This document shows positions 50,364 through 58,306 of a DNA stretch of 64,000 nucleotides, piece after piece (position 1 is the first letter of the stretch; each line of letters begins with the position of its first letter). Origin of the DNA: Escherichia coli. Its GTDB lineage: Bacteria > Pseudomonadota > Gammaproteobacteria > Enterobacterales > Enterobacteriaceae. Both the position numbers and the translations under genes were made by a program. The stretch lies in the NCBI RefSeq assembly GCF_016903815.1, contig NZ_CP069973.1; one strand, written 5' to 3'. The notes beneath the pieces were generated by a model. That model worked only from the letters and a program-made list of their open reading frames with translations. It did no database searches and was not told the origin of the DNA.

Positions 50364-50477
50364 CGCCTTTACTCCCTGTTAGTTGTTATTTATTGCCAAT
50401 GCTGAAAGTGGGTTTTTCCCTCACTCTGGAAGCCGAGGGGCCGGGGTGAGGGTAATTGTTTGCACCGGCGCGACTCT

Positions 50478-50526
50478 GTTCCCCTCACCCTAACCCTCTC
50501 CCCAAAGGGGCGAGGGGACTGTCCGT
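50478..50526. repeat. GC-rich palindromic intergenic repeat (family not confidently assigned), copy 1, between eutH and eutG
   Basis: gttcccctcaccctaaccctctccccaaaggggcgaggggactgtccgt; about 94% identical to copy at 63871-63923; partial inverted copy at 50408-50445. Confidence 0.75.
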
Positions 50527-50532
50527 ACACTT

Positions 50533-51720
50533 TTATTGCGCCGCTGCGTACAGGCCGACAATCTGCTCCAGGCTGGCGGTACGCGGGTTGCTGCGCAGAC
50601 AAATATCTTCCAGCGCGGCCTGCGCCCATGCACCGTAATGCGCAGATGTCGCACCAATATCGCCCAGTCGTTTACCAATCCCGACTTCCGCAATCAGCTC
50701 ACTTACCGCGTTAATAGCGTCACGATCGTCGGATTTTTTAGTTCGCAGCGCCCGACCAATCTGACTAAAGCGTTCACGACAAACCATCCGGTTAAATTCC
50801 ATCACCGTTGGCAACAACATGGCGTTCGCCAGACCGTGCGGAATATGCAGCGCCGCCCCCGGCTGATGCGCCATCGCGTGGCATAACCCAAGCCCCGCAC
50901 TGGAAAACGCCATTCCCGCCATGCATGAAGCCAGCAACATGCTCTCGCGCGCGGCAAGGTCATGACCGTAGCCCACCGCTTTCGGCAGTGATTTACCAAT
51001 CATCGCGATTGCGCCAATCGCCAGACTGTCGGTAAACGGTGTGGCGTTCAGCGCGCTGTACGCTTCAATAGCATGGGTTAACGCGTCGATACCGGTCATC
51101 GCCGTGACATGCGACGGCACGCCTTCGGTCAGCGCAGCGTCGAGAATCGCCACATCCGGCATCAGCGAGGCGTGGGCTAACACCTGCTTGCGCCCGCTCA
51201 CCGCGTCGATAATCACCGTTACGTTGGTGGTTTCAGAACCGGTTCCGGCGGTCGTTGGAATGGCAATCAACGGCAGGCGCGGTTGCAGAACGCTGGTTTC
51301 TGACATTTCTGCCAGCGTGCTATCCGGGTTTGTCACCAGCAACGCCACGGCTTTCGCCGCATCCAGCACCGAGCCGCCGCCAAACGCGATCACCCCGTCA
51401 CAACCTGATTCACGCAACTGCGCCACGGCTGCACACACGTCGGTGATGCACGGTTCGCCCACCGGACATGGCCAGAGCGTCATGGCGATACCTTTAACGG
51501 CCAGGCTACGCGTCAGCCCGGCGGTCATCCCCGCCTGATGCAAAAAGCTGTCTGCCATCACGAACAGATGTTTCAGCCCACGCGTTTGCGCTTGCTGCCC
51601 GCAACTGCTCATCGCGCCCGGACCGCAAAGCGTCACCGGTGGAACGCTAAATGTTTTTACCCGTTGCAGATTCAGGGTATCGAACGCCTGAAAGAGCGCG
51701 GTCTGCAATTCATTTTGCAT
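50533..51720 (-). CDS. eutG: iron-containing alcohol dehydrogenase EutG
   Basis: 395-aa ORF; Fe-ADH family. Confidence 0.95.
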   Translation of the reverse strand: MQNELQTALFQAFDTLNLQRVKTFSVPPVTLCGPGAMSSCGQQAQTRGLKHLFVMADSFLHQAGMTAGLTRSLAVKGIAMTLWPCPVGEPCITDVCAAVAQLRESGCDGVIAFGGGSVLDAAKAVALLVTNPDSTLAEMSETSVLQPRLPLIAIPTTAGTGSETTNVTVIIDAVSGRKQVLAHASLMPDVAILDAALTEGVPSHVTAMTGIDALTHAIEAYSALNATPFTDSLAIGAIAMIGKSLPKAVGYGHDLAARESMLLASCMAGMAFSSAGLGLCHAMAHQPGAALHIPHGLANAMLLPTVMEFNRMVCRERFSQIGRALRTKKSDDRDAINAVSELIAEVGIGKRLGDIGATSAHYGAWAQAALEDICLRSNPRTASLEQIVGLYAAAQ

Positions 51721-52546
51721 AGATCCCCTCCGCTTTCTCTCGCCCGCTACTGGCGATCGCCAGCGGGGTCATAAACAAACTGTGCTGCGGTAAATGCACC
51801 TGTAACGCCGGGAATTGTTTGCAAAACAGTTCCGCAACGCCCGGTTGCATACAGGAGCCGCCCGCCAGCCATAAATCAGTAATGCCCTGCCCTTCAATAT
51901 GCCGGGCGACAATGTCCGCCATTTTTTCGTACACCGGTTTCACCGCGGGCCAAATCTCTTCACCGTGACCGCGCTTGTACTGCTCCGCCTCTTCCAGCGA
52001 AATACGGCGATTTCCGGCGAGAGTCAGAGAGATATGATGTCCGCCGGTGGCTTCATCTGCCGAGTAAGTCACCTTGCCCTTTTTCACGATGGCAATGCCG
52101 GTGGTGCCGCCGCCGATATCCACTACACCGGCGTTGTCCAGTTGCAGCAGATCCGCGACTGCGGTTGGCTCATCCAGCACATGGCTCACTTCCAGCCCGG
52201 CAGACTCCAGCACGTTGATGGAAATACGCGGGTCCGTACCTGGAGGAAAAGAGGTCGCCGCATGGCTAAAACGGCGACCGAATTGCTGCTCGAGGGTGTC
52301 GAGATGGCGACGAACAATGGTGACCGCACCGAAGAAATCCCAGACGATGCCGTCGCGGACCACATCAGCCCAGTCGAGGCATACCGCCACCGGCTGACCG
52401 TCGCGGTCAACAACCATCGACACCACATCGCAGGTGCCCAGATCCACCCCCAGCCACAGCGGAGATTCCGTCGCGGCAGGCGTCTGGTTACACAGCGTTG
52501 CTGCTATGTGCAGACGTGGGGTGAGCCATTGTTCGTCGTGCGCCAT
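51710..52546 (-). CDS. eutJ: putative chaperonin EutJ (DnaK/actin-like ATPase fold)
   Basis: 278-aa ORF; ASKHA phosphate motifs (VDLGTCD, VVDIGGGTTG). Confidence 0.95.
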   Translation of the reverse strand: MAHDEQWLTPRLHIAATLCNQTPAATESPLWLGVDLGTCDVVSMVVDRDGQPVAVCLDWADVVRDGIVWDFFGAVTIVRRHLDTLEQQFGRRFSHAATSFPPGTDPRISINVLESAGLEVSHVLDEPTAVADLLQLDNAGVVDIGGGTTGIAIVKKGKVTYSADEATGGHHISLTLAGNRRISLEEAEQYKRGHGEEIWPAVKPVYEKMADIVARHIEGQGITDLWLAGGSCMQPGVAELFCKQFPALQVHLPQHSLFMTPLAIASSGREKAEGIYAK

Positions 52547-52556
52547 CTGTTACTCC

Positions 52557-53960
52557 TTAAACAATGCGAAACGCATCGACTAATACACAGCGACGCAGAC
52601 GGACAAACGTCCGCGCGCTGGTTACCCCTTCACCGGTTGGCGTGGTGATGGTCATGGTGGTCCAGCCTTCCCCGCCCAGCCCCAGCCCGGCAATACACGG
52701 TCCGTTCTTAACGAAAATGCTGGTATCAATGGCATTCGCCATCTGGTTCATGTTTTCGATGTTGCGCGAGTGCATTGCCGCCGTGTGATGGCAACCGCCT
52801 TCCAGTTTCACCGCCAGCGCAATGGCATCCGCCACGTTGGCGACGCGCACGACGGGCAGCACCGGCATCATCAGTTCAGTCACAGCAAACGGATGTTCTG
52901 CGGTGGTTTCTACAAACAGCAGTCGCGTTTGTTCCGGAACTTTAAGGCCGATTGCCGCCGCGATTTTCGCCGCATCGCGACCAACCCAGTCACGGCTGAC
53001 GGTGCCTTTTCCGCGCTCGTCGATATTTTTCAGCAACACCGGTTGCAGCTGCTGCGCCTGCTCTGCGGTCAGTTTCACCGCGTGCTGGCCTTCCATCAGA
53101 CGCATCAGTTCATCGGCTACGCTATCCACAACAATCAGTACCTTTTCGTCGGCACAAATGATGTTGTTATCGAAAGACGCGCCTTTGACGATGGACTGAG
53201 CAGCACGGGCGAGGTCAGCGGTTTCATCCACCACTACCGGCGGGTTGCCAGCGCCTGCGGCAATCAGACGTTTATTGGTGTGTTTACGCGCCGCTTCTAC
53301 TACCGCTTCGCCGCCGGTCACCACCAGCAGGCCGATGCCCGGAAACTTGAACAAACGTTGAGCGGTTTCGATATCCGGATTTGCCACAGTAACCAGTAAG
53401 TTTTCCGGCCCGCCTGCGGCAACAATCGCCTGGTTGAGCAGCGTAATCGCCCGCTGGGAGACTTTTTTCGCCGCCGGATGCGGGGCAAAAATGACGCTGT
53501 TGCCCGCGGCAATCAGGCTTATGGCGTTATTAATTACGGTTGCCGCCGGGTTGGTGGACGGAGTTACCGAAGCCACCACGCCCCAGGGCGCGTTTTCAAT
53601 TAAAGTCAGGCCGTTGTCGCCAGTCAGCACCTGCGGAGAGAGGCACTCAACGCCCGGTGTGCCGCGCGCCTGAGCAACGTTTTTGGCAAATTTATCTTCG
53701 ACGCGGCCCATGCCGGTTTCACTGACGGCAAGCTCCGCTAAATCTCTGGCGTGTTTTTCGCCTGCTTCACGAATGGCAGCAATGGCTAACTGGCGCATTG
53801 CCACGCTCTTTAACCCTTGCTGGGCAATTTTGGCTGCCGCAACGGCGTCATCCAGGGACGCGAAAACGCCCATCTCATGAACGGCGGCGGGCGGCGTATC
53901 ACTGCTTTGCATTTTCAGCAGTACCGCTTTCACCACCTGTTCAATATCCTGTTGATTCAT
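52557..53960 (-). CDS. eutE: CoA-acylating acetaldehyde dehydrogenase EutE
   Basis: 467-aa ORF; aldehyde dehydrogenase family with N-terminal encapsulation-type helix. Confidence 0.96.
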   Translation of the reverse strand: MNQQDIEQVVKAVLLKMQSSDTPPAAVHEMGVFASLDDAVAAAKIAQQGLKSVAMRQLAIAAIREAGEKHARDLAELAVSETGMGRVEDKFAKNVAQARGTPGVECLSPQVLTGDNGLTLIENAPWGVVASVTPSTNPAATVINNAISLIAAGNSVIFAPHPAAKKVSQRAITLLNQAIVAAGGPENLLVTVANPDIETAQRLFKFPGIGLLVVTGGEAVVEAARKHTNKRLIAAGAGNPPVVVDETADLARAAQSIVKGASFDNNIICADEKVLIVVDSVADELMRLMEGQHAVKLTAEQAQQLQPVLLKNIDERGKGTVSRDWVGRDAAKIAAAIGLKVPEQTRLLFVETTAEHPFAVTELMMPVLPVVRVANVADAIALAVKLEGGCHHTAAMHSRNIENMNQMANAIDTSIFVKNGPCIAGLGLGGEGWTTMTITTPTGEGVTSARTFVRLRRCVLVDAFRIV

Positions 53961-53971
53961 GATGTTCTGCC

Positions 53972-54259
53972 TTATTTGTGGAAAATTACCTGACCGCCAG
54001 ACACCACCTCATCGACAATGCCAATCACGCACAGATCGACCGGTGACGTTTCGCTTTTATGCGCCTGGCGGGCGGAACTGCCACTCACCAGCAACACCCA
54101 CTCCCCGGTTCCCGCGCCAATATTGTCGATGGCGACGGCGCATTGCCCGTCAGGATTACCTTGTGGATCAATCATTTCCACCATCAGCAATTTGTCATGC
54201 GCCAGTCCGTGATGGCGTACGGTACAAACAATTTGTCCAGTGACGACTGCCAGTTTCAT
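53972..54259 (-). CDS. eutN: microcompartment vertex protein EutN (BMV/CcmL family)
   Basis: 95-aa ORF MKLAVVTGQIVCTVRHHGLAHDKLLMVE. Confidence 0.96.
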   Translation of the reverse strand: MKLAVVTGQIVCTVRHHGLAHDKLLMVEMIDPQGNPDGQCAVAIDNIGAGTGEWVLLVSGSSARQAHKSETSPVDLCVIGIVDEVVSGGQVIFHK

Positions 54260-54365
54260 ACCCGCCTCCGTGGCGTATTTCAGGTAAAAGCTCCCCCTAC
54301 CCTCCGCGGAAGGTAAACTGAAAAAGGAGAGAGCGTGACGCCCGAATCGACGTCACACAGGGTGA

Positions 54366-54659
54366 TTACAGGTTGCTGCTATCGCCTTTCAGGCCGATCG
54401 GGAAGACTTCTTCCAGGTCGCCGTGCGGACGCGGGATAACGTGTACAGATACCAGCTCGCCGATACGCTGTGCCGCGGCGGCACCTGCGTCGGTCGCGGC
54501 TTTACAGGCTGCAACATCACCACGAACCATGGCAGTACACAGGCCGCCGCCAATCTGCTTAACACCAACCAGCTTGACGCGCGCAGCTTTCACCATCGCG
54601 TCAGAAGCCTCAATCAGTGCAACCAGGCCCCGGGTTTCGATCATTCCTAATGCTTCCAT
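54366..54659 (-). CDS. eutM: major microcompartment shell protein EutM (BMC-H)
   Basis: ORF 54366-54701; start [28 protein letters not shown], 97 aa. Confidence 0.97.
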
Positions 54660-54697
54660 TGTGCTTTCCTCTTTATCAGGGTCCAGAACGGGACCGT

Positions 54698-55714
54698 TCA
54701 TTCAACCAGTGTTTGTAAACTGCTTTCGCGGTTCACTTCTGTCTGACGCGGCACAGCTGCCACCAGCGCCAGCTCGATAATTTCCTGCACGCTACAACCA
54801 CGAGAGAGATCGTGCATCGGCGCGGCAAGCCCTTGTATCAATGGCCCGACGGCACGATATCCGCCGAGTCGTTGTGCGATTTTGTAGCCAATATTTCCGG
54901 CTTCCAGCGACGGAAAAACCATCACATTGGCCTTGCCTTGTAGCGGGCTGGCAGGCGCTTTTTGCGCCGCCACTTCCGGCACGAAGGCGGCGTCAAACTG
55001 CAACTCGCCATCCACCACCAGCTTCGGTGCGCGCTCACGGACGATTTCTGTCGCCTGCTGGACGTTGGCAACGCAGGGGTGACGGGCACTACCGTTGCTG
55101 GAAAACGACAGCATCGCCACGCGCGGTTCTTCTCCGGTGATGGCGCGCCAGGTTTCGGCGCTGGCAAGCGCGATATCCGCCAGTTGCGCCGCCGTCGGCT
55201 GTGGCACTACGCTGCAATCGGCAAAGCCCAATGCGGGGCCACTGTACTGTGGCAGCATCAGGAAAATGGAGGAGAGCGTTTTACAGCCTGGCTGTAAGCC
55301 AATAATGCGTAATCCGGCACGCAGCACATTCGCCGTGGAAGAGAGATTGCCCGCGATACAGACATCCGCTGTCCCGGCGCTGACCATTGCGGCAGCGAAC
55401 ATCAGCGGATCGGTGAGTTTTTCCAACGCATCCGGCGGCGTTTTTTCGCCCGCACGGGCCAGCCAGCGGAGAGCAAATTCTTCCCGCATTGCGAGGTTGC
55501 CATGCGGATCTATCACCTGTAGCCCGTCCATCGCCACGCCGTGACTGAGCGCAAACTGACGAAGTTCAAACGGATTGGCGACCAGAATGGGCGTTGCCAG
55601 ACCTTGTTGATGTAAATATTGCGCGGCTTTCAGCACACGTTGATCTAACGCATCCGGAAAAACCACTCTGGCGGGCGCTCGCAACGCCAGTTCACGACAA
55701 CGTTCAATAATCAT
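54698..55714 (-). CDS. eutD: phosphotransacetylase EutD
   Basis: 338-aa [37 protein letters not shown] family. Confidence 0.96.
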
Positions 55715-56514
55715 TGCGTTTCCCCCAGTCGTTGTTGGATCTGCTTCACCGTTAGCGGCTGCTTCGTTACGCTCAGGATCATCATCACGTAGACCGTGCT
55801 CGAAAGGCGGTTCAGCGCCTGCAAGATGTCCGGGCGTAATACTTCAAAACTGCGGGTTATAAACACCTGCGCCGCTACGGTTTCGGTTTCCCGCACTTTG
55901 GTGCGTAGCAGATTGAGTAACGCCGCATCGCGCCCGTGGCTGGCTTCCGGCACCAGATGATCGTGACCAAGATAGCGCAGCGGCTGATGAGAAAGCCGAT
56001 GCAGATCTTCGTCAGAAAGCCCGACAATCGCTTGGCAGGCCAGCGGTTCCCCCAGCGCATCGGCGCGCATAATGTTGCCAAGACGCGAGCGGATGTCCGC
56101 CAGCCACGGCTGCCACGGTTCCGCCAGTTCAATTTGCAGCCACACTGCCAGCGCAATGGTGCTGTCGAGAACCGCGCGAAAACCCAGACGCGGATCGCTT
56201 TTGGCGACCATTTTTTCCGCCGACAGGTGAGTCAGCGTGTCCGGCTTTTTCGCCACCGGCTGGCGGCACAGTTCGCAGCACGCCTGCCGATGTTCATCAC
56301 TACTGGTCAGCCCGTGAACGGGCTGCGGCTGCTGCTGTTCATCGTCAACAAACAGGCGGCCCTGCTCGTCAATAAACTTGATGCGCAGATGGCGGCTTTC
56401 CAGCAACTCCCGGGCAGAGGGCGTCAGGCGACTGTCCGCAGGGAGATGGATCTCTGCGCCTTCGCTAAGCGTATGATTCGCTCTTAGCCATGCTTCGGTG
56501 ATGAAATCTTTCAT
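55711..56514 (-). CDS. eutT: corrinoid (cobalamin) adenosyltransferase EutT
   Basis: 267-aa ORF; 4-bp overlaps with eutD and eutQ. Confidence 0.95.
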
Positions 56515-57212
56515 AGGGATTGCCAGTTAGCCGGCCAGGCGACATACAGGAATTTCACGCTGGATGTCGTACCAAATTCGATGCTGGAGCCTTTCGGGAT
56601 AAACATTACGTCGCCTGCTTTGGCGATCATGGTTTCGCCTTCGTGGCGAACATGCAGCTCCCCTTCCAGCACCATGTCGATTTCGTCGTAGTTCAGGGTC
56701 CACGGGAAGAATGCGTTCTCCCACTGCATAAAACCGGCGGCCATGCTGCTGCCGTCGTCTCCGGTCACAAGATCAGTCAAGCCCACGCAATGCGGCTCTG
56801 CGCCGTCGAAACGACCAAACTTGACGCTGCTGCCATCAATAACTTTGATGCCGCCTTTGCCGGTCACCGATTTGAAACTCGGCTGCATTGCACCCTGCTC
56901 CAGTGACTGTTTTTCCTTCATCACTTTTTCCATCAGCTGCGCGACCAGGCTTTCGGTAAACTGGCCTTCCGGTAGCTGGGCGATGATGGTTTCGCGGATA
57001 CGCTGGCTTTCGGTTTTATCGGCTGGCACGCAGGCGGGAACGGACGCCGTTACCGGGGTCGATTCATCACATTCAGTGATGGTAAAACCCAGTAGATCTG
57101 CCACTTCACGGGCTTCCGGGGTAATAATGCTGGCGCGCAGAACCACGGACATTGCCTGTTCGCCGCGCGCGTGTGCTTCACGAATATCATTCGCTGTGAT
57201 GAGTTTTTTCAC
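56511..57212 (-). CDS. eutQ: cupin-fold protein EutQ (acetate kinase activity reported)
   Basis: 233-aa ORF; C-terminal cupin. Confidence 0.94.
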   Translation of the reverse strand: MKKLITANDIREAHARGEQAMSVVLRASIITPEAREVADLLGFTITECDESTPVTASVPACVPADKTESQRIRETIIAQLPEGQFTESLVAQLMEKVMKEKQSLEQGAMQPSFKSVTGKGGIKVIDGSSVKFGRFDGAEPHCVGLTDLVTGDDGSSMAAGFMQWENAFFPWTLNYDEIDMVLEGELHVRHEGETMIAKAGDVMFIPKGSSIEFGTTSSVKFLYVAWPANWQSL

Positions 57213-57666
57213 CTGCTTCCTCCTGTTTGGTGAGAGATGCCAGATAATCCACCAGTTGCTGCACGCTTTGCGGGTCGTGGCTGTTTAGCTCGAAAATCGG
57301 CTCTTCGAAGCCCGTCTCAAGCAATAACTTTCGCGTTGCGGCGACGTCAGCATCTGGCATGTCCGTTTTACTGATGACGGCGATTTGCCGTTTGCTGACG
57401 CCAATATCCAGCAACCCGGCAGGCAACCGACTTTCCGGGTCATTCGCGCCGTGGACATAGATCAGCATGTCCACATCCTGTAGCGTGGTAATTAAGGCGT
57501 GATACCAGCGGGGATGGCTAAAATATTCACCCGGCGTATCAATATCACCCTTATCATTAAATTCTACGGCCTGCGTTTTTCTGGCGAGGGTATAATCTCC
57601 CTGCAACGCATTAAATAACGTTGTTTTTCCTGCCCCGACGGTACCCACAAACGCAATTCGTTTCAT
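57187..57666 (-). CDS. eutP: P-loop NTPase EutP
   Basis: 159-aa ORF MKRIAFVGTVGAGKTTLFNALQG (Walker A); 26-bp overlap with eutQ. Confidence 0.95.
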   Translation of the reverse strand: MKRIAFVGTVGAGKTTLFNALQGDYTLARKTQAVEFNDKGDIDTPGEYFSHPRWYHALITTLQDVDMLIYVHGANDPESRLPAGLLDIGVSKRQIAVISKTDMPDADVAATRKLLLETGFEEPIFELNSHDPQSVQQLVDYLASLTKQEEAGEKTHHSE

Positions 57667-57678
57667 GAATGCCTCGTA

Positions 57679-58014
57679 TTAACTTTTGGTCATTTCACAA
57701 AGCGTATAATTTAATAAACGCCCTAAACCGCTGACGGTTTGTGATAACGCTTCTTCTACTGCACCCACCGAGCCATAAATCACCAACGCGCCGCTAAAAC
57801 GGTCGAGAAAACCGATATGCACATCGGCGGCTTTTAGTGCTAAATCACCGGCGATCATCGCCGTTTCGCCGGGAGTTAGCGTCATAATGCCGATTGCGCC
57901 CGCATCAGGAACGCCGATTTTCTTCGCCAGTTCCTCGCCGGGATGCGCGATGAGATGCGCCAGTGTGACCTGTTTACCGGGCACAAATTCCTGAATGATG
58001 CGTTCTTTATCCAT
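57679..58014 (-). CDS. eutS: microcompartment shell protein EutS (circularly permuted BMC)
   Basis: ORF 57679-58086; likely start [26 protein letters not shown], 111 aa; first gene of eut operon. Confidence 0.95.
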
Positions 58015-58249: not shown

Positions 58250-58261
58250 TTTCAGGAAAAC

Positions 58262-58289
58262 CGCTTACCCTGAATATTCAGGGTAAGCG
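58262..58289 (-). terminator. probable maeB terminator (perfect 14-bp-arm palindrome)
   Basis: cgcttaccctgaat-attcagggtaagcg, followed on minus strand by GTTTTCC; 18 bp downstream of maeB stop. Confidence 0.55.
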
Positions 58290-58306
58290 TGAGAGTTAAG
58301 AATGAA

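Follow-up and report, generated by a model that had tools for sequence, protein, structure and literature searches.

A structured, conserved spacer between eutM and eutN in the eut operon of Escherichia coli: a candidate element for uncoupling the expression of two shell proteins

How can one transcript supply two shell proteins in very different amounts? A microcompartment shell needs a large number of hexamers but very few pentamers, and departures from this balance yield elongated or open shells. In the eut operon of Escherichia coli, the major hexameric shell protein EutM and the pentameric vertex protein EutN are encoded by neighboring genes, and the spacer between these genes is the subject of this analysis. 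In the stretch of 64,000 nucleotides (nt) that was analyzed (contig NZ_CP069973.1 of RefSeq assembly GCF_016903815.1; hereafter the window, to which all positions refer), the operon is intact and occupies positions 43176-58014 on the minus strand. The eutM stop codon (54366-54368) and the eutN ATG (54257-54259) are separated by 106 nt (54260-54365, minus strand). An earlier note on this DNA had drawn attention to this untranslated gap, which is borne out by the boundaries of the open reading frames and by the RefSeq annotation of strain K-12, where both genes have the same boundaries and the gap carries no annotated feature.

The reading that we tentatively favor is that, within the eut mRNA, the spacer forms a structured segment by which eutN expression is uncoupled from that of eutM, through a protective or uncoupling structure combined with a partly closed eutN start region. 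Most likely, this would be an ordinary device, similar to those known from other operons, by which a single transcript yields about 100 times more EutM than EutN. The element appears to be undescribed for the eut operon: a literature search found no described eutM-eutN element, no eut internal terminator and no account of eut mRNA stability. In the direction of transcription, the region is laid out as follows.

54366..54659, minus strand: eutM coding sequence, 97 amino acids, major BMC-H shell protein (list of open reading frames; Pfam BMC, E 2e-29; identical K-12 gene in RefSeq), stop codon UAA at 54366-54368
54359..54365, minus strand: post-stop spacer UCACCCU, 7 nt, from the eutM stop to the base of hairpin 1 (from the sequence)
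54333..54358, minus strand: hairpin 1, GUGUGACGUC-GAUUCG-GGCGUCACGC (folding, covariation and arm conservation)
54291..54331, minus strand: hairpin 2, CUCUCCU-(9-nt 5' bulge)-UACCUUC-CGCG-GAGGGUA-GGGGGAG, with outer stem CUCUCCU/GGGGGAG, inner stem UACCUUC/GAGGGUA and loop CGCG (folding and covariation)
54270..54290, minus strand: single-stranded U/A-rich linker CUUUUACCUGAAAUACGCCAC, 21 nt, which contains UUUUACCUGAAAUA (unpaired in the minimum free energy and consensus structures)
54265..54269, minus strand: eutN Shine-Dalgarno (SD) sequence GGAGG, 5 nt before the ATG (conservation and energy of the anti-SD duplex)
54260..54264, minus strand: SD-to-start spacer CGGGU (from the sequence)
54249..54265, minus strand: weak predicted hairpin over the eutN start codon, GCGGGU-AUGAA-ACUGGC (RNAalifold)
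53972..54259, minus strand: eutN coding sequence, 95 amino acids, pentameric vertex protein (list of open reading frames; Pfam EutN_CcmL, E 2e-30; RefSeq annotation)

Hairpin 1 comprises 10 pairs (6 G-C and 2 G.U) and, in E. coli, the 6-nt loop GAUUCG. Its folding energy in the sense orientation is -17.4 kcal/mol (z -4.15), a stability that none of 200 dinucleotide shuffles reaches and that places it in the top 0.11% of the 30-nt segments of the window, as one of 16 such sites on its strand. The earlier note had placed a smaller hairpin here (cgtgacg-N9-cgtcac, 54334-54356); the core arms were right, but the arms are 10 rather than 9 nt apart and the helix extends to 10 base pairs at 54333-54358, and hairpin 2 (54291-54331, -16.0 kcal/mol in the sense orientation) was absent from that account. 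Folded jointly, the two hairpins reach -33.9 kcal/mol (z -3.26), again with 0 of 200 shuffles as stable. The complementary strand folds poorly because both helices hold several G.U pairs: in the antisense orientation, hairpin 1 drops to -8.4 kcal/mol (z -0.10) and hairpin 2 to -6.8 kcal/mol (z likewise near 0). Among 22 distinct spacers of the hairpin type from related species, 21 fold more stably on the sense strand, the median difference between the strands being -8 kcal/mol. Folding confined to the sense strand indicates that the structure belongs to the eut mRNA and speaks against a DNA operator or an antisense RNA; given also that the arms stand anywhere from 4 to 26 nt apart, neither a cruciform nor an operator in double-stranded DNA is likely.

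The spacer is a fixed feature of E. coli. A 221-nt query that spans the junction has one match in each of 5407 of the 5426 complete genomes, and the spacer is found at no less than 95% identity in essentially all of these 5407. Within them, it occupies a median of 1 place per genome and 2 at the highest (blastn, 11-base words, E up to 10), whereas the spacer of Salmonella has matches at 37 unannotated places in the median E. coli genome. Being single-copy, the E. coli spacer is not a repetitive extragenic palindromic (REP) element or another dispersed repeat. The REP consensus, which we take to be of the GCCGGATG...TTATCCGGCCTAC type, is absent from the E. coli spacer. In strain 90-1 (locus L050, NZ_CP050047.1, 2580-3858), IS911 is inserted after nt 79 of the spacer and separates hairpin 2 from the eutN start region; this is the sole such case seen among about 5400 genomes.

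Beyond E. coli, searching species-representative genomes with EutN returned 48 loci, from which Salmonella enterica subsp. enterica is absent, and eutM lies directly upstream of eutN in 43. All 43 have a spacer of 52-211 nt (median 110) at this junction. The next junction, eutN-eutE, measures 10-15 nt in all 40 enterobacterial loci and 72-106 nt only in Pseudomonas and two Rhodocyclaceae loci, and the median of the preceding one, eutD-eutM, is 38 nt over the 43 loci. Loci L019, L033 and L044, on contigs of 269-466 base pairs labeled Gemelliphila, Prolixibacteraceae and Caballeronia, encode EutN sequences that are 87-100% identical to those of E. coli or Citrobacter and most likely represent enterobacterial contamination.

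By content, the spacers fall into three types. Type A, defined by hairpin 1, is found in Escherichia, the Citrobacter freundii group and three other Citrobacter, Klebsiella spallanzanii, Buttiauxella, Entomohabitans and Yokenella; each locus of this type contains the pattern GTGACGYC-N(4-30)-GRCGTCAC exactly once, directly past the eutM stop. Type B consists of REP-type palindromes, in which the REP consensus is present, and is found in S. enterica subsp. arizonae and diarizonae, most Klebsiella, C. koseri, C. amalonaticus, C. sedlakii, Pseudocitrobacter, Pluralibacter and Intestinirhabdus. Type C, with unrelated G+C-rich hairpins, is found in Pseudomonas and Rhodocyclaceae. Nearly all distinct spacers (39 of 40) are more structured than their shuffled counterparts, with median z-scores of -2.1, -2.4 and -1.4 for types A, B and C, respectively. 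The Salmonella spacing, to which the earlier note had pointed for comparison, is thus retained (111-112 nt), whereas the hairpin is not, its place being taken by REP-type repeats.

The two hairpins are also supported by covariation. In an alignment of 21 type A sequences, which includes closely related Citrobacter so that its cells are not independent events, 91.3% of the cells of both hairpins are paired, compared to 44-60% in controls in which the 3' partners were slid by 1-3 columns. Changes on both sides are seen in 11 pairs, compared to 2 in the slid controls, and none of 500 shuffles reaches the observed values. RNAalifold, run independently on the alignment with flanks, recovered the same helices. 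Compensatory changes occur in Escherichia, Citrobacter, a single Klebsiella, Buttiauxella and Entomohabitans. The conservation across strains on which the earlier note had made its idea depend is found in practically all of the 5407 E. coli genomes and, in the form of covariation, over five genera.

The two hairpins differ in how they vary. Hairpin 2 covaries freely, with both-side changes in 8 pairs (for instance, A-U to G-C, C-G to U-A and U.G to C-G), whereas 7 of the 8 pairs in the core of hairpin 1 (UGACGYC/GRCGUCA) never vary across genera and the eighth (19/44) appears as C-G, U.G and U-A in 8, 7 and 5 sequences, respectively. The loop of hairpin 1 is wholly changed in sequence between genera and ranges from 4 to 26 nt in length. 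The 16 nt of the hairpin 1 core arms are identical to E. coli at 15-16 positions in Citrobacter, K. spallanzanii, Buttiauxella and Entomohabitans, compared to 45-68% identity at the four-fold degenerate sites of eutM and eutN on either side (binomial P 6e-5 to 5e-3 per comparison, the comparisons not being independent), which indicates that the element is under purifying selection. The linker stretch UACCUGAA is nearly invariant in all hairpin-bearing genera; in the type A alignment, C86 and A89 are invariant, and T83-A90 are conserved at 90% or more.

Several other possible contents of the spacer found no support. The Rfam 15 covariance models, including that of the cobalamin riboswitch, had no match in 53500-55200 on either strand (E up to 10). 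A scan for sigma-70 promoters on both strands of the spacer yielded no site, so that an internal eutN promoter is unsupported. A long-range helix that would close the whole spacer, by pairing the 3' codons of eutM or the post-stop nucleotides with the region by the eutN SD, was predicted from single sequences in differing registers, and the alignment shows only one-sided changes for it. Pairing of the 5' arm of hairpin 1 with eutN codons 5-7 (GUCGUCAC) was rejected since this codon string is equally kept in lineages that lack hairpin 1 and is missing in Buttiauxella, which has it. Extension of EutM by read-through or frameshifting and a small open reading frame in the spacer were likewise rejected: spacer lengths of 105, 106, 110, 114, 120 and 121 nt break the frame, and in E. 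coli an in-frame UAG follows after 22 codons. Neither of the SD-like sequences inside the spacer, GGAGGG and GGGGGAG, is followed by a start codon. In the C. freundii group (L007, L009, L012 and L020), the 114-nt spacer is a multiple of three without an in-frame stop, so that eutM and eutN form one frame save for the eutM UAA; given the five other lengths in the other lineages, this open frame is judged to be a coincidence.

Within the operon, the spacer stands out by its length. The junctions measure, in nt, eutS-eutP 12, eutP-eutQ -26, eutQ-eutT -4, eutT-eutD -4, eutD-eutM 38, eutM-eutN 106, eutN-eutE 11, eutE-eutJ 10, eutJ-eutG -11, eutG-eutH 169, eutH-eutA -4, eutA-eutB 11, eutB-eutC 20, eutC-eutL 9, eutL-eutK 6 and eutK-eutR 45. 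Only eutD-eutM, eutK-eutR, eutM-eutN and eutG-eutH lie beyond the range of -26 to +20 nt, and the earlier statement that most eut junctions overlap or are shorter than 15 base pairs is mostly right. The eutM-eutN gap is the second longest. The longest, eutG-eutH (window 50364-50532, read in the minus-strand sense), measures 169 nt here and 216 nt in K-12. It is made up of a palindromic repeat of the dispersed kind, for which E. coli genomes have a median of 20 places each; the full version of this repeat is present in only 303 genomes and is thus strain-variable, unlike the fixed, single-copy eutM-eutN spacer. In RNA-seq data of strain LF82, reads per kilobase per million (RPKM) of eutH are up about 3-fold past this repeat.

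What does the junction separate in terms of expression? In E. coli K-12 grown on ethanolamine, the relative intensity-based absolute quantification (iBAQ) values are 100 for EutQ, 96 for EutM, 39 for EutL, 37 for EutB, 27 for EutE, 24 for EutC, 11 for EutS, 10 for EutD, 8 for EutK, 7 each for EutG and EutP, and 1 for EutN (PMC11334477). The contrast between an abundant hexamer and a rare pentamer assumed in the earlier note is therefore real. At the mRNA level, the RPKM values for LF82 in minimal medium are 108 for eutD, 55 for eutM, 5 for eutN, 14 for eutE, 13 for eutJ and 106 for eutH; with bile salts they are 357, 177, 62, 149, 147 and 514 for the same genes, with 358 for eutB and a span of 149-168 for eutE, eutJ and eutG (PMC6379400). 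The ratio of EutM to EutN is thus about 96:1 for the proteins and 3-11:1 for the mRNAs (from PMC11334477 and PMC6379400), and protein per RPKM, in a calculation that mixes strains and conditions, is 0.016 for eutN, the lowest of 12 eut genes, as against 0.54 for eutM. Because eutE recovers after eutN, the mRNA step appears largely confined to eutN. Since this step falls far below the protein ratio and eutE is well expressed, much of the effect must be specific to eutN and translational.

The strong eutN ribosome-binding site claimed in the earlier note is there: GGAGG lies 5 nt before the ATG and forms an anti-SD duplex of -9.5 kcal/mol, which ties with eutA for fourth among the 17 eut genes, behind eutL, eutQ and eutG. 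CGGAGG is invariant in the type A genera, and nearly all enterobacterial loci retain its GGAGG core. This strong SD runs counter to the low level of EutN, but its predicted accessibility is low: the SD would be unpaired with a probability of 0.30, and the start codon with one of 0.15. The predicted energy required to open positions -20 to +15 is 14.2 kcal/mol for eutN, compared to 7.7 for eutM, 4.6 for eutE and 6.9 for eutB, and over 12 eut genes the predicted opening energy is correlated negatively with protein abundance (Spearman -0.72, p 0.008). As modeled, the structure of start regions may set much of the Eut stoichiometry, and translational throttling of eutN is plausible on these predictions. 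The putative start-codon hairpin, whose loop would contain the AUG, has U-A at pair 149/155 in 15 sequences and C-G in 4, the change being made through a synonymous Lys codon.

Taken together, these data suggest the following course of events for the favored uncoupling spacer. The tandem stem-loops, which begin 7 nt past the eutM stop, would mark the 3' boundary of a stable, heavily translated eutS-eutM segment. An endonuclease of the RNase E type would cut the poorly translated eutN segment or the U/A-rich linker; GC|UUU, directly after hairpin 2, fits the RNase E motif RN|WUU, although this motif has low information content and the cleavage is conjectural. Exonucleases that proceed in the 3'-to-5' direction would then halt at the hairpins, so that the eutM message would outlast that of eutN. 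The structured 106-nt gap would also keep ribosomes that finish eutM, which would need to unwind the lower part of hairpin 1 on terminating, from re-initiating on eutN, and eutN would be started de novo and inefficiently, from a strong SD within a partly closed initiation region. The net outcome would be much EutM and very little EutN, with full-length transcripts still carrying eutE to eutR. In the other enterobacteria, the REP-type repeats that occupy the same slot presumably do the same job.

A number of observations weigh against this scheme. A hairpin 7 nt past the stop codon could lower the yield of EutM, as REP elements close to stop codons can. The near-invariant stem sequence of hairpin 1 exceeds what a purely structural block to exonucleases needs. 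With bile salts, eutE is almost back at the level of eutM, so that the dip concerns mostly eutN alone; moreover, the RPKM values are low and noisy, and the transcript and protein data come from different strains and conditions. All functional statements made here are built on predictions together with these two published data sets. The tables of a Term-seq study list no sense-strand 3' end at the spacer, in media in which eut is silent (PMC7815308). The start-codon hairpin, taken alone, is weak (-5.3 kcal/mol, z -1.27), and the accessibility figures for eutN are predictions. Of the suggestion in the earlier note that the spacer tunes the ratio of EutM to EutN, the ratio itself, the higher mRNA level of eutM and the conservation of the hairpin stand; a causal role of the spacer is hypothetical, and the strong ribosome-binding site and the absence of the hairpin from Salmonella are on the other side of the balance.

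The same Term-seq study contains, in its supplementary file 1, a weak antisense 3' end (946 reads) at about window position 54426 on the plus strand (MG1655 2572217 +), 61 nt inside the 3' part of eutM; the sheet is apparently that for LB medium at an optical density of 0.4, as judged only from its position in the file (PMC7815308). This end indicates that some antisense transcription crosses the spacer while the operon is off. No plus-strand promoter match for such a transcript was found in 53800-54800.

The alternative explanations can be weighed against this background. The lower level of mRNA past eutM could be the product of a leaky terminator or attenuator, in which hairpin 1 with its pyrimidine run, or hairpin 2 with CUUUUACC, stops some RNA polymerases, or Rho loads on the C-rich, G-poor untranslated tract. 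We consider this unlikely. A consensus scan does call hairpin 1 terminator-like (10 pairs, tail TCTCTCCTTT), but its U-tract is interrupted and begins only 8 nt past the stem. The UUUU after hairpin 2 is kept in Escherichia, Citrobacter and K. spallanzanii, but Buttiauxella has none after its second structure, and the U-tract by the hairpin is not conserved, Yokenella having CCCAGAUUC and Entomohabitans UCGCUUUCCC instead; the REP-type spacers have no U-tract at all. The tract CUCUCUCCUUUUUCAGUUUACCUUCC is very poor in G, as Rho loading would have it; the table of Rho regions in the Term-seq study contains no eut genes, the operon being silent in those media (PMC7815308). In minimal medium, eutN, eutE and eutJ are all below eutM, as expected under attenuation, whereas under the inducing-like conditions of the bile salt experiment eutE, eutJ and eutG approach eutM, and eutH and eutB exceed it. 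The small mRNA step, largely confined to eutN, makes a strong terminator unlikely. Furthermore, the downstream genes eutB and eutC are needed for the pathway, and their proteins are abundant (PMC11334477).

The spacer could also be a purely translational device that only breaks translational coupling and holds the eutN start closed, with mRNA levels being irrelevant. This is somewhat less probable again, even though the excess of the protein ratio over the mRNA ratio, the lowest protein yield per RPKM, the low predicted accessibility of the SD and start codon, and the synonymous Lys codon change that preserves the start-codon hairpin all fit it. Against it, the start-region hairpin is weak and not significant in comparison with shuffles, and the strong, conserved GGAGG speaks against selection for minimal initiation. 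The two strong, selected stem-loops at the end of eutM and their substitution by REP elements would be left unexplained, and iBAQ may under-count EutN owing to its small size.

That the gap has no function, being a tolerated landing pad for palindromic junk in which the hairpins survive by chance as a relic, for example, of an old repeat insertion, is improbable. The turnover of its content, in which REP-type repeats took over on several occasions within Citrobacter and Klebsiella and in Salmonella, would be in line with such a view, as would the IS911 copy in one E. coli strain and the nature of the other long eut gap, eutG-eutH, as a strain-variable dispersed repeat. The conservation of the arms far above the neutral expectation, the compensatory changes in both helices, the strand asymmetry based on G.U pairs, the single-copy status of the spacer and the presence of a long structured spacer in all 43 loci, those of Pseudomonas and Rhodocyclaceae included, all argue for a function.

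We give even less credence to the idea that a protein or an RNase binds hairpin 1 in a sequence-specific manner, such that the eutM/eutN boundary would be regulated rather than constitutive. It would account for the 7 fixed core pairs in genera whose EutN is only 75% identical, next to a freely covarying hairpin 2, and for the self-complementary GACGTC in each arm; but no candidate factor was identified, the lineages with REP spacers have the same eut gene set, including eutK, and thus give no co-occurrence signal, and the invariance of a G+C-rich stem can follow from the slowness of double substitutions. That a dedicated factor (for example, an RNase, an RNA chaperone or even the C-terminal domain of the shell protein EutK, which binds nucleic acids) recognizes hairpin 1 and processes, stabilizes or localizes eut mRNA at this boundary is very improbable, although, if so, the stoichiometry of shell proteins would be a regulated and possibly assembly-coupled step instead of a fixed one.

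Two further hairpins were encountered in and around the operon. In the eutK-eutR gap, the hairpin GGUGCCGGGUGU...ACACCCGGCAUU (window 44235-44264, minus strand, -20.7 kcal/mol) ends 6 nt before the start codon of eutR, a gene without a recognizable SD, with a predicted opening energy of 20.7 kcal/mol and a predicted probability of an unpaired start of 0.0; it resembles, as modeled, a terminator or a translation block ahead of the regulator gene. A palindromic hairpin in the maeB/eutS interval (window 58261-58290), upstream of the eut promoter region, folds with -22 kcal/mol on either strand and probably represents the maeB terminator.

Should the ordinary mechanism proposed here be the right one, the gain is incremental and would not surprise a specialist. 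Even so, identifying a cis-element that sets the ratio of EutM to EutN from one transcript would help explain native Eut assembly and would offer engineers of synthetic Eut shells a compact, portable natural spacer for setting that ratio. An intercistronic structure that is supported by covariation and functionally replaced by REP elements in sister lineages would also bear on the role of REP elements inside operons.

Among known systems, the two-hairpin antiterminators bound by the ANTAR protein EutV in the eut operons of Firmicutes share with the spacer two neighboring hairpins in a eut operon and, in E. coli, a first loop of 6 nt. However, the loop of hairpin 1, GAUUCG in E. coli and 4-26 nt long elsewhere, does not show the A1/G4 pattern, that of hairpin 2 has 4 nt (CGCG), and the E. 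coli regulator is the AraC-type EutR, not EutVW; hexanucleotide loops with A1/G4 being absent, an EutV substrate was rejected. With intrinsic terminators, the spacer shares G+C-rich hairpins (-17.4 and -16.0 kcal/mol), a pyrimidine/U tail and detection by a scan, but the tail UCUCUCCUUU barely passes a loose scan, the U-tract is interrupted, displaced and unconserved, and the downstream genes are well expressed. Lacking a conserved, uninterrupted U-tract immediately 3' of the stem, the element is not a canonical intrinsic terminator.

Closer parallels are the REP elements and bacterial interspersed mosaic elements, which are likewise extragenic palindromic stem-loops within operons; indeed, REP-type repeats hold the same slot in Salmonella, most Klebsiella and several Citrobacter. 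The E. coli element differs in being single-copy, unrelated in sequence and strand-asymmetric, whereas the REP-type spacers fold about equally on both strands. The REP of malEFG and the intercistronic hairpins (pufBA/LMX) of Rhodobacter pufBALMX are the classical cases of differential decay within an operon. Such decay reshapes at least 12% of E. coli operons (Dar and Sorek, 2018, PMC5927463). In the model of that study, 3'-to-5' exonucleases are halted by a stable structure behind a well-translated gene, and RNase E attacks the poorly translated neighbor at RN|WUU motifs that are unstructured. Most of the structures in that study are inside the downstream coding sequence, whereas the eut structure occupies a dedicated 106-nt spacer, and the dip in eut mRNA is mostly limited to eutN. 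In other respects the eut junction is of the same type: the stem-loop directly follows a well-translated gene whose product is needed in abundance and precedes one that is probably poorly translated, an unstructured site of the RN|WUU type comes after it, mRNA is more abundant for the upstream gene (in one strain, at low counts; PMC6379400), and the element is conserved between related species, across five genera.

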